Of a stretch of DNA of 64,000 nucleotides, positions 18,980-45,109 are shown one piece after another; within the stretch, counting starts at the first letter, position 1, and the number at the start of each line of letters is the position of its first letter. The notes beneath the pieces were generated by a model. The model was given only the letters and a program-made list of their open reading frames with translations, had not been told where the DNA came from and did not search any database. The DNA is from an uncultured Actinomycetes bacterium. Its GTDB lineage: Bacteria; Actinomycetota; Thermoleophilia; UBA2241. The stretch spans positions 544,001 to 608,000 of the forward strand of contig CAVRZA010000004.1 in assembly GCA_963725665.1 (NCBI GenBank), in the 5' to 3' direction. A program made the translations under genes and the position numbers.

Positions 18980-18981
18980 CG

Positions 18982-21579: not shown

Positions 21580-24397
21580 GGGCGCTCCTCTCGGGCGTCT
21601 CAGGGGCGAGCGACGCGAAGGCCGGAAGAGCGACGTAGGGGAGGCCGGCGAGGCCCGCCGGTAGGCCGGCCACGCCCTGAGCGAGGCCGTCGACCAGGCG
21701 CAGCGGCAGGCGCAGTTCACCGGAGGGCAGGGTCACGGTGAGGAGCTGGCCGGCGAAGAAGCCCGCCGTCTCGGCCTCGGCCGGGCTGAGGGCGACGTAG
21801 GGGCCGGGTGCGCGTTCGGCGACGCCGGGCGTGTGCCGGCTGAGTGGCTCGGAGCCGTAGATGTGATACAGGGGGACGATGAGCCACTCGTCCTCGCGCG
21901 GCACGAAGGCCGGCGGGATGCGGTCGGCGGCGAAGAACGCCGGCGGTTCCGCGGGTGTGCCCTCGGCGGCGAACAGACGCACGCCACTCGGCCCGCCGTG
22001 CAGCGGCCCGTTCGCCTCCTGCTGGAACTTGGCGACGCTGTTCACCGAGTTCCAGCCGGGACTCCAGATGTCCGTCAGCAGCGGCGCCGGGACCAGCGGT
22101 CCGTGCACGCCTTCAAGCGAGAAGGCGAGCGGCGAATCGAGGTCTTCGACCGGCGGCGGCTCCTGGACGGTCCGCTGCGCATCCTGCGCCGTGCGACCGC
22201 TGAAGCCGACGGGCTGGCGCGCGACGCGGCCCCCGGCGAGGCGGAAGCCGGCGCCGGGGGCCGCGTCGCGCGCCCCCGCGAGCTGGGGCAGTTCCTCGGC
22301 AATGGCCGCGAGCACCTCGTCGACCGAGGTCCAGGCGCGACCCTCGGGGCGGTCGAGCCAGACGAGCAGCTCGCGCAGCCAACGCCAGGGGTCGCGAATC
22401 TCGTCGCCGGGGGCAAAGACCGCGAAGAAACGCTGCGCGCGTCCCTCGGCGCTGACGTACGTGCCTGTGGACTCGGCCCACGTGCCTGCGGGGAGCACGC
22501 TGGTCGCCTTGCTTGTGGTGTCGTCGGCGATTGAGGCGAGCGCCACGGTGTGCTCGCAGCGGCTGAAGAACTCGTCGACCTGTGCCGCCTCGGCGCGGCG
22601 GTAGAGGTCGTTGTCGAGCACGAGCGCCGTGTCGGCCATACCGTCGACGACGGCTGCGAACGCCTCGGAGAGGCGACGGCCGCCGAGCAGGGCGAGGCCG
22701 AGGCTGTTGGGCTCGGGCAGCACGAGCAGGAGACGCGCTCGCTCTCCCAGCGCCCAGACGAGCTGGGCCGCGCCGCGCAACAGAGCCTCGCTGCCGGCAC
22801 TCGCGCCGGCGACCACGACGGTGCGCTCGGCACCGACCAGGTCGCGGGCGACGTCGGCAGCGGTCTGGGTCACGGCTGCGTCGGCGTCGGGGGCGTCGCC
22901 GCCACTGTCGACGGTAGCGTCGCCGCCACCGTCGACGGCAGCGGCAGCGCGGCCGTCGACGGCCGCCGCCGCCGCGAAAAGGACGCGCGCGAGCTCGTCG
23001 GGCGCCGCGTGCAGCGTCTGGGCGGCCAGTTCGTCGAGCTTGGTCGCGTGCAGCCCCAGGAGGCAAAGCCTCTTGGATTCGCGGCGCTTGAGACGGCCGA
23101 TGGCGGCGTCGTTCCAGCGCGTGATGTGGAGCCGCCGCTCTTCGTCTGTCCAGCGCAGGCGGTCCCAGATGCGCACCGCGAGGTCGGCCATCGGAGCCGT
23201 GTTGGTGAGATCCTCACCGGCGACCAGCACGGCCTCGGCTTGGCGCAGGTCTTGCAGCGAGGCCACACGCGTGCGTGGGTCACGCAGGAGTTCGAGCGCG
23301 AGGTCCGTCAGGTCGCGCTCGCGCTCGGAGAAGCCGAGGAAGAAGTTGTCGCCACCCACGAGGGCGCGCAGCGCATAGTTGGCCTCGAGTGAGGCGCGCG
23401 GCGAGGCGATGCCGATGGCGCGGGCGCCGCGCAAGCGGGACGCAAGGCGGCCCAGCGCCTCGCCCGCACCGGCCGGCCTCGCCTCACCACCCTCGCCATC
23501 GCGCAGCAGCGGGACGCGCACCCTTTCGGCGGAGTTGACGAACTCGTAGCCGTAGCGCCCACGGTCGCAGAGGAAGTACTGGTTCACGTCGGCGTTGTAG
23601 CGTGCCCGGACCCGGCGCAGCTCGCCGTAGCGCTCGCCGGGCAGCACGTTGCAGCCCAGCCCGCAGAGCGGGCACAGGGAGGGTGCCGTCTGCAGGTCCC
23701 ATTTGCGCGTGTAGTGCTGCGCCAGCGTCTTGTCGTCGAAGACGCCCGTGGGGCAGACCTCCACCAGGTTGCCGCTGAACTCGCTCTCGAGGGTGCCGTC
23801 GCTGACGCGTCCGAAGTAGGTCTGGTTGCGCAGGCCGAAGACGCCGAAATCGCGCCCTCCGGCGTAGTCGTTGTAGAAGCGCACGCAGCGGTAGCAGGTG
23901 ATACAGCGGTTCATCTCGTGGGTGACGAAGGGGCCGAGATCCTGGTTCTCGGCCGTCCGCTTGAGCGAGCGGTAGCGACGATAGGCATGGCCGGTCATCA
24001 CCGTCATGTCCTGCAGGTGACACTCGCCGCCTTCGTCGCAGACCGGGCAGTCGTGCGGGTGGCTCACCATCATGAGCTCGATCATGCGCGCACGGAACCG
24101 GACCGCCTCGGGGTCGTCGACGACGATGCGGGTGCCCTCGGCGGCCTCGGTCATGCACGCCATGACGATCTCGCTGTGCTCCTTGCCGTCGCGTCCCACC
24201 CAGTGCTGACGCACGGCGCACTGCCGGCAGGCGCCGATGGAGCCCATCGCCGGGTGCCAGCAGAAGTAGGGTAGGTCGAACCCCAGCGAGAGGGAGACGT
24301 CGAGCATGTTGCGGCCGCCCTCGACCTGGAACCGGCGGCCGTCGATCTCGACGGTCACGAGCTTCTCAGAGCCGTTTCCGTTGGCAGTGGCGTTCAC
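21572..24397 (-). CDS. nuoG: NADH-quinone oxidoreductase subunit G (long E. coli type, with N7 cluster)
   Basis: FCWHPAMGSIGACRQC, HPHDCPVCDEGGECHLQD, CITCYRC, CPLCGLGC..LCDRG. Confidence 0.95.
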   Translation of the reverse strand: MNATANGNGSEKLVTVEIDGRRFQVEGGRNMLDVSLSLGFDLPYFCWHPAMGSIGACRQCAVRQHWVGRDGKEHSEIVMACMTEAAEGTRIVVDDPEAVRFRARMIELMMVSHPHDCPVCDEGGECHLQDMTVMTGHAYRRYRSLKRTAENQDLGPFVTHEMNRCITCYRCVRFYNDYAGGRDFGVFGLRNQTYFGRVSDGTLESEFSGNLVEVCPTGVFDDKTLAQHYTRKWDLQTAPSLCPLCGLGCNVLPGERYGELRRVRARYNADVNQYFLCDRGRYGYEFVNSAERVRVPLLRDGEGGEARPAGAGEALGRLASRLRGARAIGIASPRASLEANYALRALVGGDNFFLGFSERERDLTDLALELLRDPRTRVASLQDLRQAEAVLVAGEDLTNTAPMADLAVRIWDRLRWTDEERRLHITRWNDAAIGRLKRRESKRLCLLGLHATKLDELAAQTLHAAPDELARVLFAAAAAVDGRAAAAVDGGGDATVDSGGDAPDADAAVTQTAADVARDLVGAERTVVVAGASAGSEALLRGAAQLVWALGERARLLLVLPEPNSLGLALLGGRRLSEAFAAVVDGMADTALVLDNDLYRRAEAAQVDEFFSRCEHTVALASIADDTTSKATSVLPAGTWAESTGTYVSAEGRAQRFFAVFAPGDEIRDPWRWLRELLVWLDRPEGRAWTSVDEVLAAIAEELPQLAGARDAAPGAGFRLAGGRVARQPVGFSGRTAQDAQRTVQEPPPVEDLDSPLAFSLEGVHGPLVPAPLLTDIWSPGWNSVNSVAKFQQEANGPLHGGPSGVRLFAAEGTPAEPPAFFAADRIPPAFVPREDEWLIVPLYHIYGSEPLSRHTPGVAERAPGPYVALSPAEAETAGFFAGQLLTVTLPSGELRLPLRLVDGLAQGVAGLPAGLAGLPYVALPAFASLAPETPERSARA

Positions 24398-24422
24398 TTG
24401 GCCGCCTCGGCCATCGTCGCGC

Positions 24423-25766
24423 TCACCACGTCTCCCCTCGCATGACAGGGACGTAGGAGCCACCCTGTCCGTACGTGCAGCCACCCTCCGCCACGTGCGC
24501 CTCGAACTCGTCGCGGAAGAGCCTGATCGCAGCCTCGAGCGGCTGTGTGGCCCCCGGGGCGAGGTCGCAGAAGCACTTGTCGGAGCCGTTCGCCCAGATC
24601 AGCTCGCCGAGCAGGTCGAGATCGCTGAGCTCGGCGCCTCCCGTCTCGAAGCCCTCCATCAGGCTGACGATCCACTGCAGCCCCTCCCGGCAGGGCGTGC
24701 ACCAGCCGCACGACTCCTGGGCGAAGAACTGCATCATGTTGAGCGTGAGACCTACGGGGCAGGTCCTGTCGTCGAGCAGCAACGGGGTGCCGGTACCCAG
24801 GCGGCTGCCCACCGTCAGCATGGACTCGAAGTCCATGGGAACGTCGGTGTCCTTCGCCAGGACAAAGGCCGTCGAAGCGCCGCCGGGGATCAGCGCCCGG
24901 AGCTCGTACCCCGGCAGCATCCCGCCGGCGTGGACCTCGATCAGCTCGCGCAGCGTCGTGCCCACGGGGAGCTCGTAGCAGCCCGGCCTGTGCACCCGTC
25001 CCGACACGCCGTAGACCTTTGTGCCGCCCTCATCGTCGCGACCGATGCCCTTCCACCACTCCACACCGTTGCGCACGATCGAGGGCACGCAACACAACGT
25101 CTCGACGTTGTTGACGACGGTGGGTCGCGCCCACAGTCCCGCGCCGGTCATGTGTGGCGGCCGCGCGCGCGGGTTCGCCCGGTCGCTCTCCATCGCGTTA
25201 AGCGCCGCCGACGCCTCCCCGCACATGTAGCGCCCGACACTCACGTGCAGGTAGAGGTCGAAGGAGAAGTCGCTGCCCATGATCCCCCGGCCGATGAAGC
25301 CGCGCTCGTATGCTTCGACGAGCGCCTGCTCGAGCGCGGCCTGAGGCTCGTCGTACTGCGCGCGCAAGAAGATATAGCCGGCGGTGGCCTCGGTGGCGTA
25401 GCCGGCCAGCAGCATGCCCTCGAGCAGGAGGTGGGGGCTACGCGCCATCAGGAAACGGTCCTTGATGCTCCCCGGCTCCATCTCGTCGGCGTTGCATACC
25501 ACGTACTTCGGCGTGGGCGCGTCGGGGCCGAGCGGCATAGTGCTCCACTTGCGTCCCGTTGCGAACCCGGCCCCGCCGCGCCCACGCAGGCCGGAATCGG
25601 TCACCAGCGTCGTGACGTCGGGAGGCTGCAGCTCGCGCAGCGCGCGCCCGAGGCCTTCGTAGCCCCCGGCGGTGAGGTAGTCGTCGAGCGAGGAGGGGCG
25701 ACCATCGGGGCGCATCGCCCGCGTGAGCGGTCGCTCCCAGCCGCGGGCGTCGAGCGCCGGGCTCAC
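24423..25766 (-). CDS. nuoF: Complex I subunit F (flavin/nucleotide site) with Ala at the E. coli E183-equivalent position
   Basis: GRGGAGF, NADEMEPG, GRYMCGEAS, ESCGWCTPCREG. Confidence 0.95.
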   Translation of the reverse strand: MSPALDARGWERPLTRAMRPDGRPSSLDDYLTAGGYEGLGRALRELQPPDVTTLVTDSGLRGRGGAGFATGRKWSTMPLGPDAPTPKYVVCNADEMEPGSIKDRFLMARSPHLLLEGMLLAGYATEATAGYIFLRAQYDEPQAALEQALVEAYERGFIGRGIMGSDFSFDLYLHVSVGRYMCGEASAALNAMESDRANPRARPPHMTGAGLWARPTVVNNVETLCCVPSIVRNGVEWWKGIGRDDEGGTKVYGVSGRVHRPGCYELPVGTTLRELIEVHAGGMLPGYELRALIPGGASTAFVLAKDTDVPMDFESMLTVGSRLGTGTPLLLDDRTCPVGLTLNMMQFFAQESCGWCTPCREGLQWIVSLMEGFETGGAELSDLDLLGELIWANGSDKCFCDLAPGATQPLEAAIRLFRDEFEAHVAEGGCTYGQGGSYVPVMRGETW

Positions 25767-26242
25767 GGGTAGCGCTCCAGGATGCGCTCGATGTCGTCGA
25801 CCGCCACCGGGCCATGCAGGTCTGAATCGACCACCATGGCGGGACCGCGGTCGCAAGCTCCCAGGCAGACTATGGGCAACAGGGTGAAGCGGTCGTCGTC
25901 GGTGGTGCCTCCCATCTCCACGCCGAGCTGGTCGCGCAGGGCCCGCCACAGCTCCTCGTAGCCCAGAGACCAGCAGGCGAAGCTGTTGCAGACGAGGATC
26001 ACGTGGCGACCCACGGGACGCCTGAAGAGCATGTTGGCGAACGTCGCCACCCTGTCGAGCTCCTCGGCGGTGACGCCGAGGAGCTCGCCGATATCGGTCA
26101 GTGCTTCGTCGGAGAGCCAGCGCCGGTGCTTCTGGACGATGCGCATCGCGGTGGCCGCTGCCGAGCGGCGGTCGGGGTAGTGATCCAGGATCGCCTCGAT
26201 ATCGTGCCTCTCGGCGTCGCTCAATGGCATCGGGGCTCCCAT
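25763..26242 (-). CDS. nuoE: NADH-quinone oxidoreductase subunit E
   Basis: CNSFAC...CLGACDRGP 2Fe-2S motif. Confidence 0.93.
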   Translation of the reverse strand: MGAPMPLSDAERHDIEAILDHYPDRRSAAATAMRIVQKHRRWLSDEALTDIGELLGVTAEELDRVATFANMLFRRPVGRHVILVCNSFACWSLGYEELWRALRDQLGVEMGGTTDDDRFTLLPIVCLGACDRGPAMVVDSDLHGPVAVDDIERILERYP

Positions 26243-26267
26243 CGCGTCGCTGCTGGGGACTCTGGGC

Positions 26268-28163
26268 TCATCTGTCGACGTCTCCCATGACGTAGTCGAG
26301 GCTGCCGAGTATCGTCACCAGGTCGGCCACCTCGTAGCCGAGGCACAGAAGTGGCACGATCTGCAGGTGAGGGAACGACGGGGTGCGGATCTTCGTGCGA
26401 TACGACGAGACGCCGCCGTCGGAGATGCAGTAGAAGGCGTAGTTGCCCTTGCTGCCCTCGGTCTGCACCGACGCCTCCCCCGGGGGGATCACCGGTCCCC
26501 AGCCCACTCCCAGAAAGTGGTCGATGAGCGTCTCGATGTCGTGCATCGTGCCGGGTTCCTTGACCGGCGGCGTCGCTAGGGGGTGGTCCGCTTTGTAGGG
26601 CCCCGGTGGCATGCTGTCTAGGCACTGACGGATGATGCGCAGGCTCTGGCGCATCTCCTCGACGTGCACGGCGACACGGTCGTAGCAGTCGCCCGTCGAC
26701 CCGACGGGCACCTCGAACTCGAACTGGTCGTAGCCCGAGTAGGGTCGTGCCTTGCGCACGTCCCAGCCAAACCCCGTGGCGCGCAGGTTCGGCCCGGTCA
26801 CGCCCCACTCGATGGCGTCGTCGACGGAGATGGGCCCGACGCCGCGCGCCCGGGCGCGCATGATGCTCGAGCGCATGACGATTCTGTCGTACTCATCGAG
26901 CCGGCGCGGCAGGTAGTCGATGAACTCGCGCACGAGCCCGTCCCATCCAGCGGGTAGATCCTCTGCCACGCCCCCGATGCGAAACCAGTTGGGGTGCATG
27001 CGCCCGCCGCAGATGGCCTCGGTGATGTCGAAGATGAACTCGCGGTCGCTGAACATGTAGAAGACGGGGGAGAGCGCGCCGATGTCCTGCGCGAAGGTGC
27101 CGTAGAACACGAGGTGGCTCGCCAGTCGGTAGAGCTCGCAGAGCATCACACGGATGACCTGGGCACGTTCGGGCACCTCGATCCCCGCCAGGGCCTCGAC
27201 GGCCGAGACGTAGGCCATGTTGTTGAGGACCCCGCCCAGGTAGTCGATGCGGTCGGTGTAGGGGATGTAGGTGTGCCACGTCTGGCGCTCGCTCATCTTC
27301 TCCTGGGCGCGGTGGTGGTAGCCGACGTCGACCACGCAGGAGACGATCTCCTCGTCCCTCAGCCCCACGATGACGCGCAGCGGGCCGTGGGTCGCGCCGT
27401 GCTGCGGTCCCACGTTGAGGTACATGAGACCGGCCTCCTCGCTTGCCGGCGGCAGGTGCCATTCCTCGGGCTTGAAGCGCAACATCTCCTGCCAGGCGTC
27501 GGCCTGCTGGGGGGGCATGACCAGCGGTCCGAGCTCCGTCCCGCGCGAAGGCGACTCCTTGCGCAGCGGGTGGCCCTCCCACCAGGGGGGGTTGAGGATG
27601 CGGTAAGGGTGTGGGCAGCCCTCGACGGTGATGCCGAACATGTCCCACAGCTCGCGCTCGTACCACTCGGCGGCCGGCCAGAGATCGACGATGGTGGCGA
27701 CGGAGGGATACTCGCCGAACAGCGGCACTTTGACGCGCACGTCGGCGTTGCGCTCGTAGGAGAGGAGCTGGTAGAAGACGGTGAAATCGGCTGCGGGCTG
27801 GCCGTCACGGCCGGCCCGCAGCCGCTCGTCGATGCCGCCCAGATCGAAGAGCGTGCGGTAGGGGCGCTCGGTGCCGCTCTTCAGGAAGCGCAGCACCTCG
27901 CGCACGCGGTCGCGGTGCACCCACACCGTGGGCACGCCGTCGCGCGTGTCCTGAGGGATGAGCTCCACGCCGGGCAGCGCTCGCCTGAGCTCGGCGAAGA
28001 CCTCGGTCTCGACCGTTGGGACTACGGCGGGGGCGCCCCACCACCTGGCCCTGACCGCCCGCGGCGGTACCTGTCCTTCGGGCTGAGCACCCCTCGCCCC
28101 CGGCGCCGCCTTCGTCTCGTGGGCCGGGACCTGGTGTCCGCCGGGTCTCTCTTCGCCGGCCAC
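26268..28163 (-). CDS. nuoC: Fused NADH-quinone oxidoreductase subunit C/D
   Basis: [18 protein letters not shown] (C) continues into [28 protein letters not shown] (D). Confidence 0.95.
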
Positions 28164-28164
28164 C

Positions 28165-28816
28165 CTAGACCTCTTCCTGGGGTCGCAGCTCGGTCTCGCC
28201 CTGACGGTAGGGCCGTTTGCTGTCTCGCAACGACAGGACGGCCGGCTCCCGGACCCCCTGCGGGCCCACCACCCAGCTCAGCGGACGGCGCTGGCCGCCC
28301 ACCTTCGCCTGCAGCAGCAGGAGGCCCTCCATGAAGGTCGTCGGCGTCGGAGGGCAACCCTGCACGTACACGTCGACCGGCAGGAAGCTGTCGACTCCCT
28401 GCACCACGCTGTACACGTCGAACATGCCGCCCGAGTTGGCGCAGGAGCCCATCGAGATCACCCAGCGCGGCTCCATCATCTGCTCGTAGAGGCGCTGTAT
28501 CACGGGGGCCATCTTGAGGAACGGTGTGCCGGCGATGATCATCACGTCGGCCTCGCGCGGTGAGGTGCGCAGCACCTCGGCCCCGAAGCGGGCGATGTCG
28601 TAACGCGGGGTCAAGCTGGTGGCCATCTCGACGAAGCAGCAGGAGAGGCCGAACCCGAAGGGCCACATGGAGTTCTTGCGCCCCCAGGCCAGCAGGTCCT
28701 GCAGGCCGGCAAACACGGTGATCGGCGTTTCGGGGCCTTCGGGCAGAGGCGCGTTGGCCAGGTCGGCAAGCGCTCGTCCGGTGCCCGAGCCGTCGTTCGT
28801 CGCGGCGGATTCTCAT
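28165..28816 (-). CDS. nuoB: NADH-quinone oxidoreductase subunit B (5' end uncertain: ATG at 28816 is out of frame)
   Basis: [27 protein letters not shown]. Confidence 0.92.
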
Positions 28817-29235
28817 CGCCGCCGCTCCCTCTCGGCCTCGCGCTGGGCGCGCCGCGCACGCGAGCCGGGACCCCAGTCGAGGGCGCCTTCCTTCCAGAGA
28901 TAGATCAGGCCTGCCAAGAGGAGAACGACGAAGAACAGCACCTCGAGATAGCCGGCCCAGCCGAGCCGTCGGGCGGCGATCGCCCAGGCGATGATGAACA
29001 CGGTCTCGATGTCGAACACGACGAAGAAGATGGCGAGCTGGTAGAACTCGATCGAGAGACGCTGCGGGAGAGGGCTGGCCGGCTCGATGCCCGACTCGTA
29101 GCGGTCGCCTGTGCCGAGGTCGCCGTGACGCTCGCCGAGCACGTGCGCCAGAAGCAGGATGATCCCCGTCAGGGCGAAGACCGCGATCGCGTACACGGCG
29201 ACCGGCCACACGGTCGTTGTCGCTGCTGCAATCAC
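28813..29235 (-). CDS. nuoA: NADH-quinone oxidoreductase subunit A
   Basis: YESGI, FFVVFDIE, YLWKEGALDW. Confidence 0.95.
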   Translation of the reverse strand: MIAAATTTVWPVAVYAIAVFALTGIILLLAHVLGERHGDLGTGDRYESGIEPASPLPQRLSIEFYQLAIFFVVFDIETVFIIAWAIAARRLGWAGYLEVLFFVVLLLAGLIYLWKEGALDWGPGSRARRAQREAERERRR

Positions 29236-29538: not shown

Positions 29539-31859
29539 ATGTTCGAGGTCCTGGTAAACGAGGAGATCGCGCCGCAGCTGCACCGCATGGTGGTCAGCGC
29601 GGCGCGCATCGCACGTGCGAGACGTCCGGGCCAGTTCGTCATCGTGCGCGTCGGCGAGGGGGGCGAGCGCATCCCGCTCACCATCGCCGACGACGACGCC
29701 GAGGCGGGGACGATCACGCTCATCATCCAGGCGGTCGGGCACTCGACGCGGGACATCGTCGCGGTGCCCGTCGGCGGCGCGATCCGCGACATCGCCGGCC
29801 CGCTCGGCCAGCCCACCGAGATCGAGCGCTGGGGCAAGGTGGTCTGTGTGGGCGGCGGCGCCGGCACCGCCGTGCTCTTCCCGCTGGCCAAGGCGCTGGC
29901 GCGCGCGGGCAACGAGCTCACGACCATCATCGGTGGCCGCAGCGCGCCCTACGTCGTGCTGCGCGACGAGCTGGCCGAGTTCTCGCACGAGGTCCTCGTG
30001 CACCACGGAGGACGGCTCGCTGGGCGAGAAGGGCTTCGTGACGCAGCCGCTCAAGCGCATCCTCGAGGGCGAGTACGGGGATCGGCCCGACGCCGTGTAC
30101 GCCGTCGGGCCGGTCCCCATGATGAAGGCAGTTGCCGAGCTGACGCGCAAGTACGGCGTGCACACCGTCGTCTCGCTCAACCCCCTCATGGTCGACGGCA
30201 CCGGCATGTGCGGCGGCTGCCGCGTGACCGTGGGCGGCGAGACCAAGTTCGCCTGCGTCGACGGTCCCGAGTTCGACGGTCACCTGGTCGACTACGACGA
30301 GCTCGCGGGGCGCCAGAGCGCCTACCTGGAGCTTGACACGCACGGCTGTCGCATCGTCCCCAAGATCAAGGAGGCCGAGCTCGGCCACAAGGTGCTCTCA
30401 GCCAAGGAGCGTCTGGCGATCGCGCGCGTGAAGATGCCCGAGCAGGACCCGGAGCGGCGCAGCGCCACCTTCGACGAGGTCAACCTCGGGCTGACGCCGG
30501 AGCTCGCCATCCTCGAGGCGCAGCGCTGCCTGCAGTGCAAGAACCGACCCTGCGTCGCCGGCTGCCCGGTGAGCGTGCGCATCCCCGAGTTCCTCGACTG
30601 CGTGGCCGCAGGATGACTTCGCCGGGGCGGCGCGCATCCTGCTCGCCGACAACGCCCTGCCGGCGACCACCGGGCGCGTCTGTCCGCAGGAGACGCAGTG
30701 CGAGGGCGTGTGCATCCGTGGCAAGAAGGGCGAGCCCGGTGCCGTGGGCTGGCTCGAGCGCTTCGTCGCCGACTGGGCGGCCGAGAACATGGAGCTCGAG
30801 CTACCCGACGTCGAGCCTTCGGGCAAGAAAGTGGCCATCGTCGGCGCCGGCCCCGGTGGACTGACGGTCGCCGGCGAGCTGGCGCGCATGGGCCACGGCG
30901 TGCACGTCTTCGAGGCGCTGCACGACACGGGCGGCGTGCTGCGCTACGGCATCCCCGAGTTCCGCCTGCCCAAGCACATCGTCGACCACGAGGTCGCCAA
31001 CCTGCGCAAGCTGGGCGTCGAGATCGAGTGCAACGTGATCATCGGGCGCACGCTCACGATCGACGAACTGCAGCGCGACTTCGACGCCATCTTCGTGGCC
31101 AACGGCGCCGGCCTGCCGATGTTCTTGAACATCCCGGGCGAGAACCTGAAGGGCGTCTACTCGGCCAACGAGTACCTGACACGCGTCAACCTGATGGGCG
31201 CCTGGATGACCTACGAAGGCGCGACGCCGATCGCCCGCGGAGAGACGGTTGTGGTGTTCGGCGGCGGCAACGTGGCCATGGACGCCGTACGTACTTCGAA
31301 GCGACTCGGTGCGGGCCGGGCCGTCTGCGCCTACCGGCGTACCAAGGCCGAGATGCCGGCGCGCGTGGAGGAGATCGCCCACGCCGAGGAGGAGGGCATC
31401 GAGTTCGAGTACCTCGTGGCGCCGCTGGAGATCCTCGGCGACGAGCAGGGCTGGGTGCGCGCCGTGACGCTGCAGCGCATGGAGCTGGGCGAGCCCGACG
31501 ACTCCGGGCGTCGCCGGCCGGTGCCGGTGCCGGGCAGCGAGTACGAGCTGCCCTGCCAGATCGCCATCGTCGCCTTGGGCACGGTCGCCAACCCGCTGCT
31601 GACCAACGCCACGCCCGGCCTCGAGCTCAACCGCTGGGGCAACATCGTCACCGACGAGAACCACATGACGTCGATGCCGTGCGTGTTCGCCGGCGGCGAC
31701 ATCGTGCGTGGCGGAGCGACGGTGATCCTGGCCATGGGCGACGGCAAAGAGGCGGCGCGCTCCATCGACGAGTCACTGCGCAGCGGCGTCTGCCGGCGGC
31801 CCGGGGTGAAAGAGGTCGCAGCGGCCGGAGCGGCCGCGTCCCCGGGTACTACTTCGTAG
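29539..31859 (+). CDS. nfnAB: Fused NfnA-NfnB (SudB-SudA) electron-bifurcating ferredoxin:NADP+ oxidoreductase; two +1 frameshifts near 30001 and 30613
   Basis: NfnA: PGQFVI, ERIPLTI, MVDGTGMCGGCRV..ACVDGPEFDG. Continues in frame into NfnB: RCLQC..CVAGCPV, GRVCPQETQCE, GGVLRYGIPEFRLPK, GGGNVAMD..YRRT, AGGDIVRGGATVILAMG. RBS AGGAGG. Confidence 0.88.
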
Positions 31860-31873: not shown

Positions 31874-31917
31874 GCGCGGCGGGCGGCGGCGCCTTCGGGC
31901 GCCGCCGCCCGCCGCGC
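31874..31917 (+). terminator. Perfect 20-bp hairpin with C(UUCG)G loop after nfnAB
   Basis: gcgcggcgggcggcggcgcc-ttcg-ggcgccgccgcccgccgcgc. Confidence 0.75.
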
Positions 31918-32203
31918 GGTCTCGTTTCCTGGCACGTCACGGTTCACGCGACGCTACGACCGTGCCCAGGTCTCGGACACCCTCCTGGGCAACGCACCGT
32001 ACGACATTCACCACGATGATACGCCCCATACGTTGGCCACGTCGCCTCGACGGACCGGGATGAGCTGAACCGGTCAGCAGCTCTTTCCCTCCGCGGCGGG
32101 AGTTGGTTGACTAGCGCTACCGACCACCGGCATGGAGCGTGCCCTGCGGCACGGACCGGAGGAACGCTCCACAGCATGTACGACCCGTGAGAAGGAGGCG
32201 CGC

Positions 32204-33670
32204 GTGAAACGGAACCGCCACGCCGGGCGCAGGCGCAGCGGCGGCCTGGGCCTCGACGTCTTCACGCCCGAGGAGCTCGAGGACATCCACCTGAGCACAC
32301 TGCAGGTCCTCGAGCACACGGGGGTGCTCGTCGACGACGACGAGGCGATGGACTACTTCGCGGCGGCCGGCTGCCACGTCGACCGCGACGAAAGGATCGT
32401 CAAGATCTCGCCGCACGTGGTCGAGGAGGCGATCGCCTCGGCTCCGGCCAGCATCCTCCTCGCGGGGCGCGACCCGAAGAACGATGTCGTCCTCGAATCG
32501 AACCGCGTCGGCTTCTGCACCTTCGGCGAGGGCATCATGATCGTCGATCCGTACAGCGGCGAGCTGCGGGAACCGCTCAAGAAGGACGTCGGCGACGCCG
32601 CCAAGCTGGCCGACGCGCTGGACGATATCGACACGTTCGAGATCGCCATCGGCGCCAAGGACGCGCCTGGCGAGACGGCCTCTATCCACAACTTCGAGGC
32701 TGCCCTCGCGAACACGACGAAGTGCATCGGCGCCGGCACGCTCTCGACGGAGGAGACGGAGGCCGTCATCGACATGGCCGCCGTGGTAGCCGGCGGGCGC
32801 GAGAGCTTACGCGAGCGGCCGATCGTCTACTTGGGCGTCTGCCCGGTGAGCCCCCTCAAGCTCACCAAGGAGGTCTGCGAGGTCATCATCTCGGCCGCCA
32901 AAGCCGGCCTGCCCGACAACATCCTCTCGATGGCGATGAGCGGCGGCTCGGCCCCGGCCAACCTCGCCGGCACGCTCGTCACGCACAACGCCGAGGTCTT
33001 GAGCGGCATCACTCTGGCGCAGCTTGTCCGCCGCGGCACGCCGGTGATCTACGGCAGCTCCACGACGGCCCTCGACCTGCGCTTCGCAACGGCCTCGGTC
33101 GGCTCACCGGAGTGCGCCATGGTCAACGCCGGCGTGGCCTGTCTCGCGCGTCAGTACCGGCTGCCGAGCTACGTTGCCGGTGCGTAGGGGGATGCGAAGC
33201 TCAGTGACGCCCAGACCGGTCACGAGAAGACACTGACCGGACTGCTACCGGCGTTGGCAGGCGCCAACCTCCTGTACGGTTCGGGGATGATCGAGTCGGG
33301 AGTCACCTTCGATTTCGGGCAGCTCGTTATGGACAACGAGTTCGCGCGCATGATCAAGTTCGTGGTCGGAGGCATCAGGGTCGACGACGAGACGCTGTCG
33401 GTCGACGTCATCGCGCAGGTAGGCGCCTTCGGGGACTTCCTGAGTCACGAGGACACCTACAAGAACATGCGCATCCAGTCGCAGAGCAAGCTGATCGACC
33501 GGCGCGTGCGCGAGGACTGGGAGCAGGCCGGCTCGACCGACCTCTACACGAGGGCCTGCGCCGAAGCGCGCCGGATCCTCGAGTCGCACGAGGTCGAGCG
33601 GCTCGCCGACGACGTCACCGCGGAGGTCCGCGAGATCGTCGCACGGGCCGACCGCGCGCTCACGGCGTAG
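32204..33670 (+). CDS. mttB: Trimethylamine:corrinoid methyltransferase, pyrrolysine type (in-frame TAG 33185-33187, codon 328)
   Basis: The two ORF-track pieces share a frame and join as [26 protein letters not shown]; also LSMAMSGGSAP, GTLVTHNAEVLSGI, YGSSTT, ASVGSPE; RBS AAGGAGG before GTG 32204. Confidence 0.93.
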
Positions 33671-33808
33671 GAGGGAGAGCGTCAGCGGAGGGCAGAACGC
33701 CAGAAGGCCAAGGCGCTGACTGGGGCCCCATGGGCGTGAGCGGGGCGCAGCCCCAGGAGCTTGTGAGGCGGCGGGGCGGGTAAGCGCCGCGCTAGTCGAG
33801 GCTGAGGG

Positions 33809-35681: not shown

Positions 35682-36518
35682 ATGAGAGTGGAGCGTAGGG
35701 ACCACCGGAGGGGACGCCGTCGTCTCGCACCTGCTCTGCTGTTGTTCGCGCTTCTCTGCTTGCCCGCATCCGCATTCGCGGCCAGCCCCAGCGCCTCGCC
35801 AACGGCGGCTGGGGCCACATCGGTGACACCGACACCTTTCTCGACGCCCGTGGTTTCTGCCACGGTCATCCCGCCAGGGTCGGGAGCGGCAGTCTTCGCG
35901 CAGAACTGCTCCGGCTGCCACGGCACCCGCGGCGAAGGCAACTCGCGCGGCCCCTTCTACGGCCCGTCGCTGCAGGCCGCCGCCTTCCCCAGCCTCGTTG
36001 CTGAGATGGTCGAGCGTGGCAGGCAGGCGCCGACGCCCGCCCGCGTGCAGATGCCGGCCTTCGCCGGCGTGTTGAGCGGCGAGCAGATCGCTGCCGTGTC
36101 CGCATACGTGTCGGGGGTGCTCTCTGACCCCGCCGCGCGCAGCGCGCAGGCGGGCGAGGGGGGCGTGATCTTCCGCCTGTACTGTTCGGGCTGTCACAGC
36201 GCGGCGGGTCGGGGCGGCGCCATCGTGAACGGCGTCAACGCGCCAAACCTGCGGTTGCATCCTGCCGCGACGGCTCTTGCCGCCGTGATCATCGGGCCGG
36301 GCAACATGCCGGTCTTCGCGGGCAACACCCTCGATACCCGCCAGCAGGCCGCCGCCGCCCGCTACGTCGAGGCCCTCCTGACGACCCCTTCGCCGGGCGG
36401 GCGCGATCTAGGGTTCATCGGTCCCGTCGCGGAGGGCTTCGCGGCGGCGATCGCCCTTGCGGCGCTGGTCGCTTTCACAGTGTGGCTCGAGTGGGGCAAG
36501 GGCAGGGCCCGTGACTGA
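35682..36518 (+). CDS. qcrC: Cytochrome bcc di-heme cytochrome c subunit
   Basis: Two CSGCH motifs, axial MPAF/MPVF, C-terminal GPVAEG plus TM helix. Confidence 0.88.
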   Translation: MRVERRDHRRGRRRLAPALLLFALLCLPASAFAASPSASPTAAGATSVTPTPFSTPVVSATVIPPGSGAAVFAQNCSGCHGTRGEGNSRGPFYGPSLQAAAFPSLVAEMVERGRQAPTPARVQMPAFAGVLSGEQIAAVSAYVSGVLSDPAARSAQAGEGGVIFRLYCSGCHSAAGRGGAIVNGVNAPNLRLHPAATALAAVIIGPGNMPVFAGNTLDTRQQAAAARYVEALLTTPSPGGRDLGFIGPVAEGFAAAIALAALVAFTVWLEWGKGRARD

Positions 36519-37425
36519 GCTGGAGGAGCGCGTGACCGAGGCCGCGGAGTCGGCGTTCGCCGGGGCGGGACCGCCGGCCGGCGAGCCGCAGCGCCCGCGG
36601 CCCGCGTGGCCGTCGGCGCTGGCGCTTCTCGCCGCCATGGCCGGCGGCGTCGGTTTCGCCTGGTCGTACGTCGTCGACGCCGGCAACGCCTGGCTCGGGG
36701 GCTTCCTTGCCCTGGGCCTCCTCGGCCTCGGCTTCGCGCTCGCCTACTGGGGGCGCGACCTCGCCGGCGACGATGAAGCCTTGGGGCGCTACCCGATCCC
36801 CTACGAGGATGCCGAGGCTCAAGTCGCCTTAGCGGCGGACGTGCAACGCGATGCGGAGGTGGTGACGCGCCGCGGCTTCCTCACCAAGCTTCTCATCGGC
36901 GGCGCGGCCGTCTTCGGTCTGAGCCAGCTCGCGCTCGTCGCCTCGCTGGGTCCGCGTCCGAGGAGCAGCTTCTACGAGGGCGCGTGGCGAGCCGGCTCCC
37001 GCCTGGTCACCTTCGACGGCCGCCCCGTGACCCGTGGCGCGCTGGCCGGCGGCGGTTTCCTCGTGGCGTTCCCGGAGGGCCACACCGACTCGGCGAACTC
37101 GCAAGTGGTGCTGCTGCGCCTGCCGACGGATCGCTTCACGCCACAGCCCGGGCGCGAGAGCTGGAGCCCCGAGGGGTTCGTCGCCTACTCGCGCGTCTGC
37201 ACGCACGCGGGCTGCGCCGTCGCGCAGTACGAGGACGAGGCTCAGGTCCTTCTCTGCCCGTGCCATCAATCGACCTTCGATGTGCTGAACGGGGCCAGGC
37301 CGATCGGCGGACCGGCGGCGCGGGCGCTGCCCCAGCTGCCCCTGGCGATCGATCCCGCCGGCGACCTCGTCGCCCAGGGTGACTTCACCGAGCCCGTCGG
37401 CCCCAAGTCCTGGACGATCCTGTGA
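36511..37425 (+). CDS. qcrA: Cytochrome bcc Rieske subunit
   Basis: CTHAGC and CPCHQSTF; two TM helices then internal Tat motif TRRGFL. Confidence 0.93.
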   Translation: MTELEERVTEAAESAFAGAGPPAGEPQRPRPAWPSALALLAAMAGGVGFAWSYVVDAGNAWLGGFLALGLLGLGFALAYWGRDLAGDDEALGRYPIPYEDAEAQVALAADVQRDAEVVTRRGFLTKLLIGGAAVFGLSQLALVASLGPRPRSSFYEGAWRAGSRLVTFDGRPVTRGALAGGGFLVAFPEGHTDSANSQVVLLRLPTDRFTPQPGRESWSPEGFVAYSRVCTHAGCAVAQYEDEAQVLLCPCHQSTFDVLNGARPIGGPAARALPQLPLAIDPAGDLVAQGDFTEPVGPKSWTIL

Positions 37426-38792
37426 GTGAGCGGACGATCATCAAAGGGCTGGCCAAGGCCTTCAACGTGTCGCAGGCAAGGACGCGCGGCGCGGCGCGCT
37501 GGGTCGGCAGGAACGTCGGCGGTAGTAGCGTGCTGCGCGAGGAGCTGCGTCACATCTTCCCCGACCACTGGTCGTTCTTCTTCGGCGAGATCGCGCTCTA
37601 CTGCTTCATCATCCTGATCGTCACGGGCGTCTTCATGGCGCTGTTCTTCAGCGCCTCGGCGGCTGAGGTCGTCTACAACGGGAGCTACGAGCCGCTCAAG
37701 GGCGTCGTCATGTCCGACGCCTACCGATCGACGGTCAACCTGAGCCTCGACGTGAGGGCCGGTCTCCTTGTGCGGCAGGTCCACCACTGGGCCGCCCTGG
37801 TGTTCGCCGCGGCACTCGGTCTGCACCTCTTCCGCATGTTCTTCACCGGCGCCTATCGCAGACCGCGCATGATCAACTGGATGGTCGGCCTCATCCTGTT
37901 CTTGCTCGTCGTCCTGAACGGCATCTTCGGCTACTCGCTGCCCGACGACCTGCTCAGCGGCACCGGCCTGCGAATCGCCTACTCGATCACGGAGTCGATA
38001 CCGCTGGTCGGTCCCTGGCTGGCCTCTCTCATGTTCGGCGGCGCGTTCCCCAGCCAGGCTCTGATACCGCGCATCTACCCGGTGCACATCTTCCTGGTGC
38101 CGGGGGCGATCGGCGCGCTGCTGGGGGTCCACCTGGGAGTGCTCTGGCTGCAGCGTCACACGCAGTTCTCCGGCCCCGGCCGCGACGAGCGAACGGTGGT
38201 GGGGACTCCGCTCATACCCGCCTACGCGTTGCGCACCGTCGGCTTCTCGCTGATCGTCGCCGGCGCGCTGGCCGTGCTCGGCGGCTTCTTCCAGATCAAC
38301 CCGGTGTGGGTGTACGGCCCCTACAAGCCTTGGGACGCAACCACGCTGGCTCAGCCCGACTGGTACACGGGCTGGCTCGAGGGGTCCGTGCGTCTCTTCC
38401 CGTCGTGGGACATCGTCATCGGCGGCTTCAGGCTGCCGGGCCTGTTCTGGCCGGCCGTCGTCCTGCCCGGCCTCGTTCTCACTCCGCTTCTCGTCTGGCC
38501 GCTGGTTGAGCGCGTCGCCACGGGCGACAGCCGCTACCACAACCTCATCGACACGCCCTGTGTCCACCCGGGACGCAGCGCCATCGCCGCCGGCACCATG
38601 ACCTTCCTCTTCACGCTGTTGTTCGCCGGCGGCGACGACGTCTGGTCGGTGCTCTTCGGCTGGCCGATCGAGTCCCTGGTGCTGGGGTTCCGCATCGCCG
38701 TGATCGTCCTGCCGCCGATCGTCGCCTTGCTCACCTACTTCACCTGCCAGGCGGCTTCGGCCGCGCGTCGGACTTCGCTCGCCGGGCGCTGA
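37422..38792 (+). CDS. qcrB: Cytochrome bcc cytochrome b subunit
   Basis: FPDHWSFFFGEIALY, RQVHHWAA, GYSLPDDLLSGTG, QPDWY. Confidence 0.95.
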   Translation: MSERTIIKGLAKAFNVSQARTRGAARWVGRNVGGSSVLREELRHIFPDHWSFFFGEIALYCFIILIVTGVFMALFFSASAAEVVYNGSYEPLKGVVMSDAYRSTVNLSLDVRAGLLVRQVHHWAALVFAAALGLHLFRMFFTGAYRRPRMINWMVGLILFLLVVLNGIFGYSLPDDLLSGTGLRIAYSITESIPLVGPWLASLMFGGAFPSQALIPRIYPVHIFLVPGAIGALLGVHLGVLWLQRHTQFSGPGRDERTVVGTPLIPAYALRTVGFSLIVAGALAVLGGFFQINPVWVYGPYKPWDATTLAQPDWYTGWLEGSVRLFPSWDIVIGGFRLPGLFWPAVVLPGLVLTPLLVWPLVERVATGDSRYHNLIDTPCVHPGRSAIAAGTMTFLFTLLFAGGDDVWSVLFGWPIESLVLGFRIAVIVLPPIVALLTYFTCQAASAARRTSLAGR

Positions 38793-39918: not shown

Positions 39919-40923
39919 GTGCAGGGCGTGAGCAGACGCGCGCCTTTGCTCGCCGCCCTCATCCTGTTCCTCGTCCTGCTCTTGGCGGGATGCGCCAAGG
40001 ACTCCCCGACGATCCTTCGCCCTGGCTCTCCCGGCGGCACCGACATCAAGACGCTCACCATCCAGATACTGGCCATCTTGAGCGGCGTCGCCATCACCGT
40101 CTGGGTCATCCTGACGATCGTCATCATCCGCTACCGCAGGCGGCCAGAGTCGCAGGTCCGCCAGACGCGCGGCAACCTGACGATCGAGATCGTCTGGACG
40201 GCGATCCCTGCCGTCATCGTCGCCGTGCTCTTCTTCCTCACCATCCGCACGACCGGGGAGCTCGCCATCCCCGCCAGCACCCAGGTCCACTTCGCCGCGA
40301 CCGGCCACCAGTGGTGGTGGGAGTTCGAGTTCGCCGGCGGGACCTTCAAGACGGCCAACGAGATACACCTTCCGGTGGAGCAGACTGTGTCGGCCGACCT
40401 GCTCTCGACCGACGTCATCCACAGCTACTGGGTGCCGCAGCTGGGTGGCAAGGTCGACATGATACCTGGCCACATTAACCGCATCGCCTTCATCCCTGCC
40501 CAGACCGGCAGGTTCTTGGGGGAGTGCTCCGAGTACTGCGGCCATCAGCACGCCCACATGCGCTTCCTCGTGTTCGTCGTTTCATCGGCCGAGTTCGCGA
40601 CGTGGTTCGCGAACCAGCAGCTCCCGGCCCGCGCGCCGACGGGCGCACAGGCGATAGCCGGCAGTCAGTTCATCGCCACCATCGCCTGTGGCGGCTGCCA
40701 CGCCATCAGGGGGACCAGCCTGGCCGGCGTGAAGGGCCCGGATCTGACGCACTTCGGCAGCCGCACGAGCATCGCCGCCGTGACCCTGCCCAACACGCCC
40801 CAGAACCTCTCCCGCTGGATCGCCGATCCGCAGGCGGTGAAGCCCGAGACGCTCATGCCGCTCATCGCCATGCCGCCTGATCGCCTTGCGCAGGTCGTCG
40901 CCTACCTCGAGGAGCTGAAGTGA
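39919..40923 (+). CDS. ctaC: Cytochrome c oxidase subunit II with C-terminal cytochrome c (caa3 type), lipoprotein
   Basis: LLAGC lipobox, GHQWWWEF, DVIHSYWVP, CSEYCGHQHAHM (CuA), CGGCH..KPETLMP. Confidence 0.93.
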   Translation: MQGVSRRAPLLAALILFLVLLLAGCAKDSPTILRPGSPGGTDIKTLTIQILAILSGVAITVWVILTIVIIRYRRRPESQVRQTRGNLTIEIVWTAIPAVIVAVLFFLTIRTTGELAIPASTQVHFAATGHQWWWEFEFAGGTFKTANEIHLPVEQTVSADLLSTDVIHSYWVPQLGGKVDMIPGHINRIAFIPAQTGRFLGECSEYCGHQHAHMRFLVFVVSSAEFATWFANQQLPARAPTGAQAIAGSQFIATIACGGCHAIRGTSLAGVKGPDLTHFGSRTSIAAVTLPNTPQNLSRWIADPQAVKPETLMPLIAMPPDRLAQVVAYLEELK

Positions 40924-43358
40924 GCGCCCAGGCGGCCGTGCCGCTCAGCGCCTACGAGCCGGCCCAGCGGGCGAGCCTTCGCGATTGGCTCACCACGACC
41001 AACCACAAGCGGATCGGCATCCTCTACATCGCCACGGCGCTGATCTATTTCCTGGTCGCGGTGACCTTTGCGATGCTGATGCGCACGCAGCTCATCAGAC
41101 CCAACAACGACTTCCTCACGCCCGAGCAGTACAACCAGATCTTCTCCATGCACGGCACCACCATGATCTTCCTCTTCGGCATGCCGATCCTCATCGGCTT
41201 CGCCAACTACCTCGTGCCGCTGATGATCGGCGCCCGTGACATGGCTTTCCCGCGTCTCAACATGCTCAGCTACTGGCTGTTCCTGTTCGGCGGGATCCTG
41301 ATGTACAGCAGCTTTCTCTTCGGCGGCGCGCTCGACACCGGCTGGTTCAGCTACGCGCCGCTCACCGAGAAGGCGTACTCGCCCCACGACGGGGTGACGT
41401 TCTGGATCGTGTCTCTGGCCGTCCTCGGCGTCTCCTCCCTCGTGGGGGCCGTCAACTTCATCGTGACCATGCTGAGACTGCGCGCGCCGGGCATGACCTG
41501 GCTGCGCATGCCGCTCTTCGCTCAGGCGACCTACATCAACTCGTTCCTGATCTTGTTCGCCATCCCCAGCCTGTCGGCCGCCACGGCGCTCCTGTACCTC
41601 GACCGCCTGCACGGCACGACGTGGTTCAACGCCGCCACCGGCGGCGACCCCATCATCTGGCAGCACCTCTTCTGGTTCTTCGGTCACCCCGAGGTCTACA
41701 TCCTTATACTGCCGGCCTTCGGCATGATGAGTGAGGTGGTGCCGATCTTCTCGCGCAAGGTGCTGTTCGGCCGCACGACGATGATCATCATGCTGGCGGC
41801 CATCGGGTTCCTCGGCTTCATCGTGTGGGCGCACCACATGTTCGCCACGGGTCTGCCCACTTACTTCAACACCATCATGGCGGGAACCAGCATGCTGATC
41901 GCCATCCCGACCGGGGTGAAGATCTTCAACTGGTTGGCGACCATGTGGGGCGGTTCTTTGCGCTTCAAGACGCCACTGCTGTTCGCCTGCGGCCTGATCG
42001 CCCTCTTCACCATCGGCGGCATCACCGGCGTGATGCAGGCCGTAGTGCCGTTCGACTGGCAGGTGACCGACACGTTCTTCATCGTCGGCCACCTGCACAA
42101 CGTGCTCTTCGCGGGTACGATCTTCGGCGTCTTCGCCGGCTTCTACTACTGGTTCCCCAAGATCACCGGCCGGCTGCTCGACGACCGTCTCGGCAAATGG
42201 CACTTCTGGATCATGGTCGTGGGGTTCAGCCTGACGTTCCTGCCGATGTACGCGCTTGGTCTCATGGGCATGCCTCGGCGGGTCTACACCTACGCATCCA
42301 ACCTGGGCTGGAACGACCTCAACCTGGTCTCGTCGATCGGTGGCTACATCCTCGCCGTGTCGATTACCGTCTTCGTGGTCAACGTTGTGCGCAGCCTGCG
42401 ATCAGGCGAGGTGGCCGGCGACAACCCGTGGGACGCGTGGACGCTGGAGTGGGCCACCACGTCTCCGCCGCCGCCCGACAACTTCACCTCGCTACCGCCG
42501 ATCCACAGCGCGAGACCGCTCTGGGATCTCAAGCACCCCGAGGATCCTGATGAGCCCAGCTCCCACGATGCGGCGGTGGCGGTGGCACCTGAGGCGGGGG
42601 GAGACAGCGGAGGAGCCGACGGCTTTTTGGCCGAGTCCGGGCACTCGACACTCGTGCCTCTCTTCACCGGCGTGGCCATCCTCGTGATGGCGATCGGGCT
42701 GCTCACCTCGCTCCTTGTGTCTCTTGCCGGCATCCTGATGCTCTTCGTTGTGGCTGCCCAGTGGCTCTCATCGCCCTTCCCGCCTCCCGATGCGCCGGAC
42801 GAGCCCGGCGCTCGCTTCACGATCGCCGGCTTGGGCATGCTGGTCTTCCTCGGATCGGAGGTAGTCTTTTTCGGCTCGCTCATCGCCGCCGCCGTTCACC
42901 TGCGTATCCACACCAGCACGCTCGGCCCGTTCGGCCTGGGCCTCACTCTGCCCATCGTCAACACGGTCGTTCTCATCAGCAGCGGCATCGCCGCCCATTA
43001 CGCCCTCGTCAGCCTGCGGAAGGGCCGTAGCGGGTGGTTCGCCTTCCTGGTCGTTCTGACGATCGCGCTTGGAGCCACCTTCCTGGCCGGCCAGGCCTGG
43101 GAGTACACGCATGTCGGCTTCGGTCTCTCGAGCGGCGTGGAGGGATCGACCTTCTTCACCCTGACCGGGTTCCACGGCGCCCACGTCACCGCCGGCATCC
43201 TGGTGCTGCTGTACGTGTTCGTGCGCATCAGAAGGCAGAGGAGACTCGCTGCCGCGACGGGCGACGGCGGCACGGGCATCATGGAGGCCGGCACCTACTA
43301 CTGGCATTTCGTCGACGCCGTGTGGGTGGCCGTCTTCGTCGTCGTCTACCTGCTCTGA
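40920..43358 (+). CDS. ctaD: Cytochrome c oxidase subunit I fused to subunit III (A1 type)
   Basis: MHGTTM, WFFGHPEVY, WAHHMF, GHLHNV, GMPRR; C-terminal FLGSEV..TGFHGAHV..YYWHFVDAVW. Confidence 0.94.
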   Translation: MSAQAAVPLSAYEPAQRASLRDWLTTTNHKRIGILYIATALIYFLVAVTFAMLMRTQLIRPNNDFLTPEQYNQIFSMHGTTMIFLFGMPILIGFANYLVPLMIGARDMAFPRLNMLSYWLFLFGGILMYSSFLFGGALDTGWFSYAPLTEKAYSPHDGVTFWIVSLAVLGVSSLVGAVNFIVTMLRLRAPGMTWLRMPLFAQATYINSFLILFAIPSLSAATALLYLDRLHGTTWFNAATGGDPIIWQHLFWFFGHPEVYILILPAFGMMSEVVPIFSRKVLFGRTTMIIMLAAIGFLGFIVWAHHMFATGLPTYFNTIMAGTSMLIAIPTGVKIFNWLATMWGGSLRFKTPLLFACGLIALFTIGGITGVMQAVVPFDWQVTDTFFIVGHLHNVLFAGTIFGVFAGFYYWFPKITGRLLDDRLGKWHFWIMVVGFSLTFLPMYALGLMGMPRRVYTYASNLGWNDLNLVSSIGGYILAVSITVFVVNVVRSLRSGEVAGDNPWDAWTLEWATTSPPPPDNFTSLPPIHSARPLWDLKHPEDPDEPSSHDAAVAVAPEAGGDSGGADGFLAESGHSTLVPLFTGVAILVMAIGLLTSLLVSLAGILMLFVVAAQWLSSPFPPPDAPDEPGARFTIAGLGMLVFLGSEVVFFGSLIAAAVHLRIHTSTLGPFGLGLTLPIVNTVVLISSGIAAHYALVSLRKGRSGWFAFLVVLTIALGATFLAGQAWEYTHVGFGLSSGVEGSTFFTLTGFHGAHVTAGILVLLYVFVRIRRQRRLAAATGDGGTGIMEAGTYYWHFVDAVWVAVFVVVYLL

Positions 43359-45103: not shown

Positions 45104-45109
45104 TGCTGT

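Follow-up and report, generated by a model that had tools for sequence, protein, structure and literature searches.

The window, by which we mean the whole 64-kb stretch of DNA that was analysed, has a GC content of 69% throughout and carries on its plus strand two open reading frames (ORFs; 32132-33187 and 33254-33670) that share a frame and are divided by a single TAG at 33185-33187. This TAG is flanked by ...TACGTTGCCGGTGCG on its 5′ side and GGGGATGCGAAG on its 3′ side, and translation across the ORF pair reads ...LPSYVAGA up to the TAG, followed by 34 residues. Frame, TAG and sequence are as described in the initial annotation, which had proposed that a pyrrolysine (Pyl)-type gene for trimethylamine:corrinoid methyltransferase, mttB, lies hidden in the two ORFs. 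We place the start of the gene at GTG 32204, since a ribosome-binding site read from the sequence (GAAGGAGG, 32191-32198, plus strand) lies 5 nt upstream of this codon and since homologues start at equivalent M/VKRN residues. With this start, mttB (32204-33670, plus strand) has 488 codons, and the in-frame TAG is codon 328, in agreement with the position given earlier. Besides the TAG at 33185-33187, there is no further internal stop or frameshift between 32204 and 33670. The terminal stop of the gene (33668-33670) is a TAG too; the first in-frame stop beyond it is a TGA at 33737-33739 (plus strand, by frame reading), and if the terminal TAG were read through as well, the protein would be longer by the residue inserted there and 22 more. 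Upstream, a terminator-like hairpin of 20 G-C pairs with a T-rich tail (31874-31917, plus strand) closes the preceding gene, and on the downstream side the next gene runs convergently. Thus, mttB looks monocistronic, a transcription unit of its own.

The gene stands alone between respiratory-chain operons, which is an unusual genomic setting. On one side is the NADH:quinone oxidoreductase (complex I) operon nuoA-N (13940-29235, minus strand; NCBIfam scan), in which nuoC and nuoD are fused. On the other, 2.0 kb downstream of mttB, qcrC, qcrA and qcrB (35682-38792, plus strand) encode an actinobacterial-type cytochrome bc1 complex; QcrB exceeds the cut-off of its actinobacterial model (bc1_QcrB_actin, 546 bits; cut-off 500), and the matches to the actinobacterial QcrA and QcrC models fall below theirs. 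A cytochrome c oxidase is encoded at 39919-43358 (plus strand; NCBIfam) by ctaC and a ctaD-ctaE fusion (CoxB model, 168.5 bits, cut-off 147.7; CtaD_CoxA, 711.7 bits, cut-off 670.75), with subunit III models matching residues 634-812 of the ctaD ORF. A c-type cytochrome domain is fused to subunit II, so the oxidase is of the caa3 type. The earlier statement that respiratory genes, including this oxidase, lie about 2 kb from mttB is therefore borne out, with the bc1 genes beginning at 35682. A gene for heme O synthase is also in the window. Downstream of mttB, copD and its neighbour are common to the window and two relatives' loci (L018 and L026). A HEAT-repeat protein is encoded beside mttB; its protein-atlas matches were to generic HEAT-repeat clusters only (0.81) and gave no lead to taxonomy or function. 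At least two other window genes are frameshifted by single-base indels (near 30613 and 55950), and these frame breaks are either assembly errors or decayed genes. The GC content, the actinobacterial QcrB match and the placement of mttB in the tree described below all agree with the actinobacterial host suspected earlier. We take the host to be, probably, a high-GC actinobacterium with an aerobic respiratory chain, belonging to Thermoleophilia or a close ally.

Identity and conservation of the read-through protein

When the TAG at codon 328 is read through, the protein matches the NCBIfam equivalog for Pyl-type trimethylamine methyltransferase end to end (TIGR02369, trimeth_pyl; protein residues 16-483, profile positions 2-469 of 469), with a score of 708.5 bits, where the curated cut-off is 525. 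It also matches Pfam MTTB (PF06253; 1.1e-91, 307.8 bits), and its best solved-structure matches are those of Methanosarcina barkeri MttB (7xcm/7xcl, 7e-120, residues 2-486). In the alignment to 7xcl_A, residue 328, encoded by the in-frame UAG at 33185-33187 (plus strand) and predicted to be pyrrolysine, falls opposite X334, which is Pyl334 of the M. barkeri enzyme; the initial annotation had named this correspondence, and it stands.

The active site is also kept. The study of the M. barkeri structures (7XCL, 7XCM and 7XCN; PMC9842639) describes Gly110 and Tyr364 as 100% conserved and as activating Pyl, Met249 as gating the substrate pocket, and Gly372 as contacting the corrinoid. By alignment, the counterparts in the window protein are G108, Y358, M243 and G366, respectively. 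M. barkeri Thr111 is replaced by Glu109, at a position where, according to the same study, the contacts are made by the main chain. The two proteins thus belong to the same family from end to end, with Pyl at 334 in one and predicted at 328 in the other. They differ in that the window gene has Glu109 for Thr111, no adjoining mttC and a terminal TAG, and in that its host is bacterial, with 69% GC and aerobic respiratory genes nearby.

Enzymes of the non-Pyl MttB superfamily, such as the MtgB-type protein of Desulfitobacterium (2QNE) and glycine betaine methyltransferase (9YCE), share PF06253 and, by sequence, the fold class with the window protein (3.6e-69), but at the Pyl column their genes have a sense codon and the window gene has TAG. 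Enzymes of these types act on quaternary amines. Membership of the window gene in this non-Pyl group is ruled out by the TAG at the Pyl column together with the score above the TIGR02369 cut-off.

The TAG is shared widely among relatives. Our scan of species-representative genomes gave 236 pattern matches, of which 98 were confirmed and 80 loci were fetched. At the Pyl column the stop was TAG in 97 of 97 copies, a count drawn from the 80 loci, second copies included, and the window. A complementary pattern was seen among the best 120 database relatives: 75 are 323-329 aa long (72 of them exactly 327), and those of 327-329 aa that were inspected finish at ...AG(A/L), the residue that precedes the TAG. 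The nine closest of the 323-329 aa relatives are 83-94% identical to the window protein. The 43 full-length relatives are 44-57% identical; their residue at the Pyl column is L, W, A, S, Q, G, V, T or H, except for one gap.

Downstream of the TAG, the frame runs for 160 codons without a stop. GC3 is 0.93 in this part versus 0.91 upstream, and mean identity to 83 relatives is 63.1% versus 58.0%. These measures indicate that the coding part 3′ of the UAG is constrained like the part 5′ of it, and the distribution of the codon among copies indicates that the TAG in this mttB is ancestral and maintained. Since 96 other copies have TAG at exactly the Pyl column, neither a random error nor a fresh nonsense mutation is credible. 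Taken together, the equivalog score, the alignment to the solved enzyme, the kept catalytic residues, the conserved C-terminal part and the 97 of 97 TAG codons uphold the earlier identification, and we regard it as virtually certain that 32204-33670 is a genuine, intact Pyl-type mttB.

The sequence that begins at the UAG (33185-33284, plus strand) matches the full length (positions 1-100 of 100) of the Rfam model RF02510 (PYLIS_3, ‘pyrrolysine insertion sequence mttB’) with 67 bits, well over the gathering score of 38. However, cmscan flagged six positions of this alignment as non-standard pairs, and the free fold of 33185-33300 is unremarkable (z = −0.68), with 53 of 200 shuffles folding equally well. 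We thus think that the RF02510 match chiefly reflects conserved coding sequence. The match appears to confirm the conserved context of the UAG, and in view of the same two observations we make no claim for a PYLIS hairpin as a recoding signal; a functional RNA element here is unsupported.

Relatives of the gene and the decoding machinery

We placed the window gene in a quick maximum-likelihood tree of 112 rows (LG+G4, SH-aLRT support only), limited to copies whose upstream part has at least 300 residues and whose downstream part has 150-200. The window mttB falls in a 10-row clade of metagenome fragments (support 99), whose nine other members are 75-94% identical to it and 327-329 aa long. The sister of this clade (support 96) has 10 rows, which consist of seven copies from Thermoleophilia metagenome-assembled genomes (MAGs), one from an Actinomycetes MAG, one from an Actinomycetota MAG and one fragment. 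The two clades are nested in a larger, mostly actinobacterial clade of 61 rows (support 95). In the scan of species-representative genomes, the best identity was 67% and the top loci were mostly from Thermoleophilia, Actinomycetes or Actinomycetota MAGs. Within the actinobacterial clade, some lineages have Leu, Val or Trp in place of Pyl, and so the Pyl trait has been lost at times.

The nearest named relatives in the tree are mttB copies from MAGs of Thermoleophilia (among them the genus Bog-752 of order UBA2241), whose Pyl-type mttB and mtbB are reported in PMC10805028 to be expressed; they come from the same phylum and probably the same class as the window. They have the TAG in the same column, and as in the window, TAG is a common stop at their loci and pyl genes do not adjoin mttB. 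They differ from the window copy in sequence (57-66% identity) and in that the latter sits in a separate clade of metagenome fragments only. Neighbourhoods also differ: the window mttB is alone, whereas high-GC relatives’ loci mostly have mttC (26 of 41, mostly directly after mttB) and mtbB (30 of 41). In these 30 loci we found 33 MtbB N-terminal fragments, all 33 ending in TAG, and in 28 cases a C-terminal fragment follows in frame. The own stop of mttB in the high-GC relatives’ copies is TGA in all but three.

The initial annotation had reported that pylTSBCD and mttC are missing from the window, and every search of the 64 kb agrees. ARAGORN, which found pylT in 8 of 40 other loci as a control, returned no tRNA-Pyl from the window, where it detected only a tRNA-Leu. 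Eight tRNA-Pyl genes from other loci also served us to build a covariance model. This model recovered a ninth pylT (84.5 bits, in L069) that ARAGORN had missed; in the window, searched with the filters off, it gave nothing above 18.4 bits, and that match is the tRNA-Leu. The pylT screen rests on ARAGORN and our own model because a whole-window Rfam scan missed this genuine tRNA-Leu (9515-9598), which scored 50.6 bits in a small-region scan. For the proteins, we took PylSc, PylB, PylC, PylD, PylSn and MttC from a canonical Desulfobacterota cluster (L074) as tblastn queries, verified against NCBIfam; none had a match in the 64 kb at E ≤ 1e-3. An NCBIfam scan of 60 window ORFs likewise found no pyl genes and no mttC.

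Canonical bacterial Pyl clusters, such as L074 and that of the Olavius delta-1 symbiont (L036), have the mttB TAG in the same column as the window. In L074, mttB, mttC, pylT, pylSc, pylB, pylC, pylD and pylSn are together, in this order, and the window has none of this arrangement; the hosts of such clusters are sulfate-reducer-type lineages with lower GC. Among low-GC loci of the Desulfobacterota type, nine had pylT and eight had PylSc. In contrast, none of the 41 high-GC relatives’ loci had pyl genes or pylT within 10 kb of mttB. Unlinked pyl genes thus appear normal for the high-GC lineage, and their absence from 64 kb says little, since the pyl genes of relatives are not near mttB either.

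Evidence that such machinery exists in this lineage came from searches with PylSc. A search of 1.84 billion representatives returned 186 matches, some with high-GC composition. When one high-GC-type PylSc (P0245) was used as the query, 120 clusters were listed, with 63-100% identity. The mean content of the amino acids G+A+R+P was 35% in this set versus 26% in the Desulfobacterota-type set, and all six members tested passed the TIGR02367 (PylS_Cterm) cut-off. The only organism names among the 120 clusters listed were ‘Thermoleophilia bacterium’ and ‘Actinobacteria bacterium’. The high-GC lineage thus seems to have Pyl decoding machinery, at the level of class or phylum only. The 64 kb contain none of the decoding genes, and decoding of UAG as Pyl by the host itself, which the initial annotation had proposed, is something we infer; judged from its lineage, the host probably inserts pyrrolysine into its MttB.

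Similar genes are on record from related actinobacteria of soil that are uncultured. PMC10805028 reports that Actinobacteriota MAGs express Pyl-encoding mttB and mtbB, and according to its supplementary tables Bog-752 belongs to the order UBA2241 of Thermoleophilia; pylS, pylB and pyrrolysine are not mentioned in the supplementary files searched. PMC9630628 counts 81 bacterial genomes with PylRS, two of them from Actinobacteria, and its supplement names ‘Actinobacteria bacterium ADurb.BinA094’ and ‘Thermoleophilia bacterium’. Beyond these two papers, we found no study of a pyl system in Thermoleophilia in the open-access literature, nor any there on an aerobe that uses Pyl. Thermoleophilia-like MAGs with Pyl-type mttB and PylRS are already published, and the window gene is a further example from a distinct sub-clade. 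The one fresh element is that the contig with mttB also carries the genes of complex I, bc1 and the caa3 oxidase.

UAG as stop and as predicted pyrrolysine codon

UAG is an ordinary stop codon here. TAG terminates 22 of 52 window genes (~42%) and, in the high-GC loci, 43% of 453 ORFs of at least 150 aa, with fragments of Pyl genes counted in. Among the window genes, homology runs across a TAG in mttB only. Three other genes have coding-like in-frame sequence after their TAG, and each time this is simply the next gene. Genome-wide reassignment of UAG was rejected on the 22 TAG-ended genes and the lack of homology across TAG in any window gene besides mttB. Recoding is thus not genome-wide and must be local or conditional, that is, gene-specific or confined to certain conditions. 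The usual model for conditional UAG recoding in bacteria is the regulated expression of pyl genes in Acetohalobium.

We consider it probable that the window encodes a functional Pyl-dependent MttB of a high-GC actinobacterium, probably of Thermoleophilia or an ally, that has an aerobic respiratory chain. In the mechanism we propose, a split PylSn/PylSc synthetase would charge the Pyl-tRNA(CUA) that reads UAG 328, and PylBCD, from genes in another part of the genome, would make Pyl. Trimethylamine would be bound by the Pyl imine, and a methyl group would pass to the Co(I) corrinoid held by MttC, whose gene would likewise lie outside the window, and then to tetrahydrofolate, for oxidation or assimilation. 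Recoding of UAG may be partial, may be conditional (e.g. through methylamine-induced pyl genes) or may be tolerated as C-terminal extensions of other proteins.

The strongest competitor, although unlikely, is that the gene is stranded: in a lineage that formerly decoded UAG as Pyl, the host would have lost its pyl genes, translation would halt at codon 328, and the gene would be a young pseudogene or would yield a useless fragment of 327 residues. This reading draws on the lack of pyl genes, pylT and mttC in 64 kb, on the orphan state of the window copy, which is without the mttC and mtbB neighbours that are common in relatives, and on its own TAG stop, which sets it apart from all but three copies of high-GC relatives. 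The frameshifts in other window genes and the replacement of Pyl by ordinary residues in some actinobacterial relatives point the same way. However, a stranded gene does not readily account for 160 codons after the TAG with GC3 of 0.93 and neither stop nor frameshift, nor for a post-TAG part that is more conserved than the N-terminal part (63% vs. 58%). The nine clade-mates, 75-94% identical and of the same 327-329 aa length, suggest a gene that is maintained rather than decaying, and the absence of pyl genes carries little weight where relatives also keep them away from mttB.

Far less probable is that UAG 328 is used without Pyl, either through insertion of an ordinary residue by a near-cognate or suppressor tRNA, or because the two ORFs make separate proteins, the second from TTG 33254. 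The first version gains some plausibility from full-length relatives in which Leu, Trp, Ala or Ser takes this position and which presumably act on other substrates, and the TTG-started ORF that follows the TAG does so for the second. But the window holds no suppressor tRNA, and TAG in 97 of 97 copies over distant lineages fits a specific coded residue better than leaky termination. For separate halves, the residues between the TAG and TTG 33254 (GDAK..HEKT..), which are among the best conserved of the family, would be lost. A sequencing or assembly error in place of a true sense codon is scarcely conceivable: the frame breaks in at least two other window genes hint at an error-prone assembly, but they are indels rather than substitutions, and one cannot credit chance with a TAG at the very column where 96 homologous copies from other genomes have it too.

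The preferred reading, a Pyl-dependent MttB in use, has a bolder form that we put forward only tentatively, as rather less than an even chance. In this form, an oxygen-respiring, soil-type actinobacterium would consume trimethylamine through genetically encoded Pyl and an O2-sensitive corrinoid pathway, in a genome where about four in ten genes end in UAG. In the literature, demethylation of methylamines by Pyl enzymes counts as a trait of anaerobic life, one that either feeds methanogenesis or competes with it. The sole element that might surprise a specialist is the aerobic context, and it will take a whole genome or a culture to give it meaning.

For the family, gene callers split every such Pyl gene in two, so methylamine use is systematically under-annotated in the uncultured high-GC actinobacteria concerned, which are abundant. 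The position of mttB between complex I and the bc1/caa3 operons raises the question of whether some Pyl users respire oxygen, and the 42% of genes with TAG stops raises a second, namely how such a genome tolerates a UAG-decoding tRNA. If the bolder form were true, no aerobe, obligate or facultative, would have been known before this host to decode Pyl; its mttB would lie among respiratory-chain operons, apart from the pyl genes and mttC, and it would exemplify in nature a recoding of UAG that is conditional and gene-specific while TAG stops have not been purged from the genome.

Detection of tRNA genes

The tRNA-Leu (CAA) gene at 9512-9598 (-) reached 50.6 bits in an Rfam scan of a 321-base segment, above the gathering score of 29. 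The same gene was absent from the output of the whole-window Rfam scan at the gathering threshold, and fast Rfam filters can miss real tRNAs when 64 kb is scanned at once. In L069, the locus of a Syntrophomonadaceae MAG, a tRNA-Pyl at 1775-1846 (-) was recovered at 84.5 bits by R1, a covariance model built from eight tRNA-Pyl genes of other loci; ARAGORN did not detect this tRNA.

Fused genes and apparently broken or truncated genes in the window

The 5' neighbour of mttB (29615-31859, +) codes for a fusion of an NfnB/GltD-type NADPH oxidoreductase with a dihydroorotate-dehydrogenase-B-like FAD/NAD subunit. This fusion gene is divided by a one-base frame shift near 30610-30616 (+), where a conserved motif that includes CVAAG meets an in-frame TGA and then resumes in the +1 frame. 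The shift is either an assembly indel or the mark of a pseudogene. What looks like a second frame break lies in an ArgE/DapE-family deacylase gene (55018-56172, -), whose product matches its models only from about profile position 90 on. Upstream, the same frame holds Arg/Ser-rich nonsense with two stops, and thus the N-terminal part is apparently encoded in another frame. A peptide/nickel-type substrate-binding protein (53859-54815, +) covers only the middle of its models, from about position 180 to 430 of profiles some 500-556 positions long, and looks truncated.

Two gene fusions occur in the respiratory chain of the window: an ORF of 812 residues (40920-43358, +) joins cytochrome oxidase subunits I and III, and one of 631 residues (26268-28163, -) joins NuoC and NuoD.

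Gene neighbourhoods of mttB

Close to mttB, Thermoleophilia-type loci repeatedly carry genes for a saccharopine dehydrogenase-like protein, a lysine-2,3-aminomutase-like radical SAM protein and a member of the ornithine cyclodeaminase family. Examples of recurrent neighbours in relatives' high-GC loci are found at 2021-3319 (-) in L068, 19527-20552 (+) in L001 and 6469-7938 (-) in L061. On the 3' side of mttB, copD and an adjoining unnamed gene lie 10 kb away in the window (43428-45766, -) and 3-4 kb away in two relatives' loci, L018 (9573-11833) and L026 (14498-16710). Identity of these genes is 49-59%, and the copD pair may be a remnant of a common gene order.

TAG stops and the pyrrolysine column

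The 52 genes called in the window (1-64000) end in TGA (28), TAG (22) or TAA (2). This frequency of TAG stops is unusually high for a 69% GC genome, and a similar bias was seen in the high-GC relatives' loci.

At the Pyl column, six full-length MttB relatives from the databases (P0012, P0020, P0033, P0018, P0026 and P0039) have Leu, Val or Trp, and two of the six bear Actinomycetes or Thermoleophilia MAG protein names. All six were nested within the actinobacterial Pyl clade in a quick tree, in which several of them have long branches and their placement is unsure. Subject to that placement, these sequences suggest that ordinary residues took the place of Pyl repeatedly in this actinobacterial lineage.
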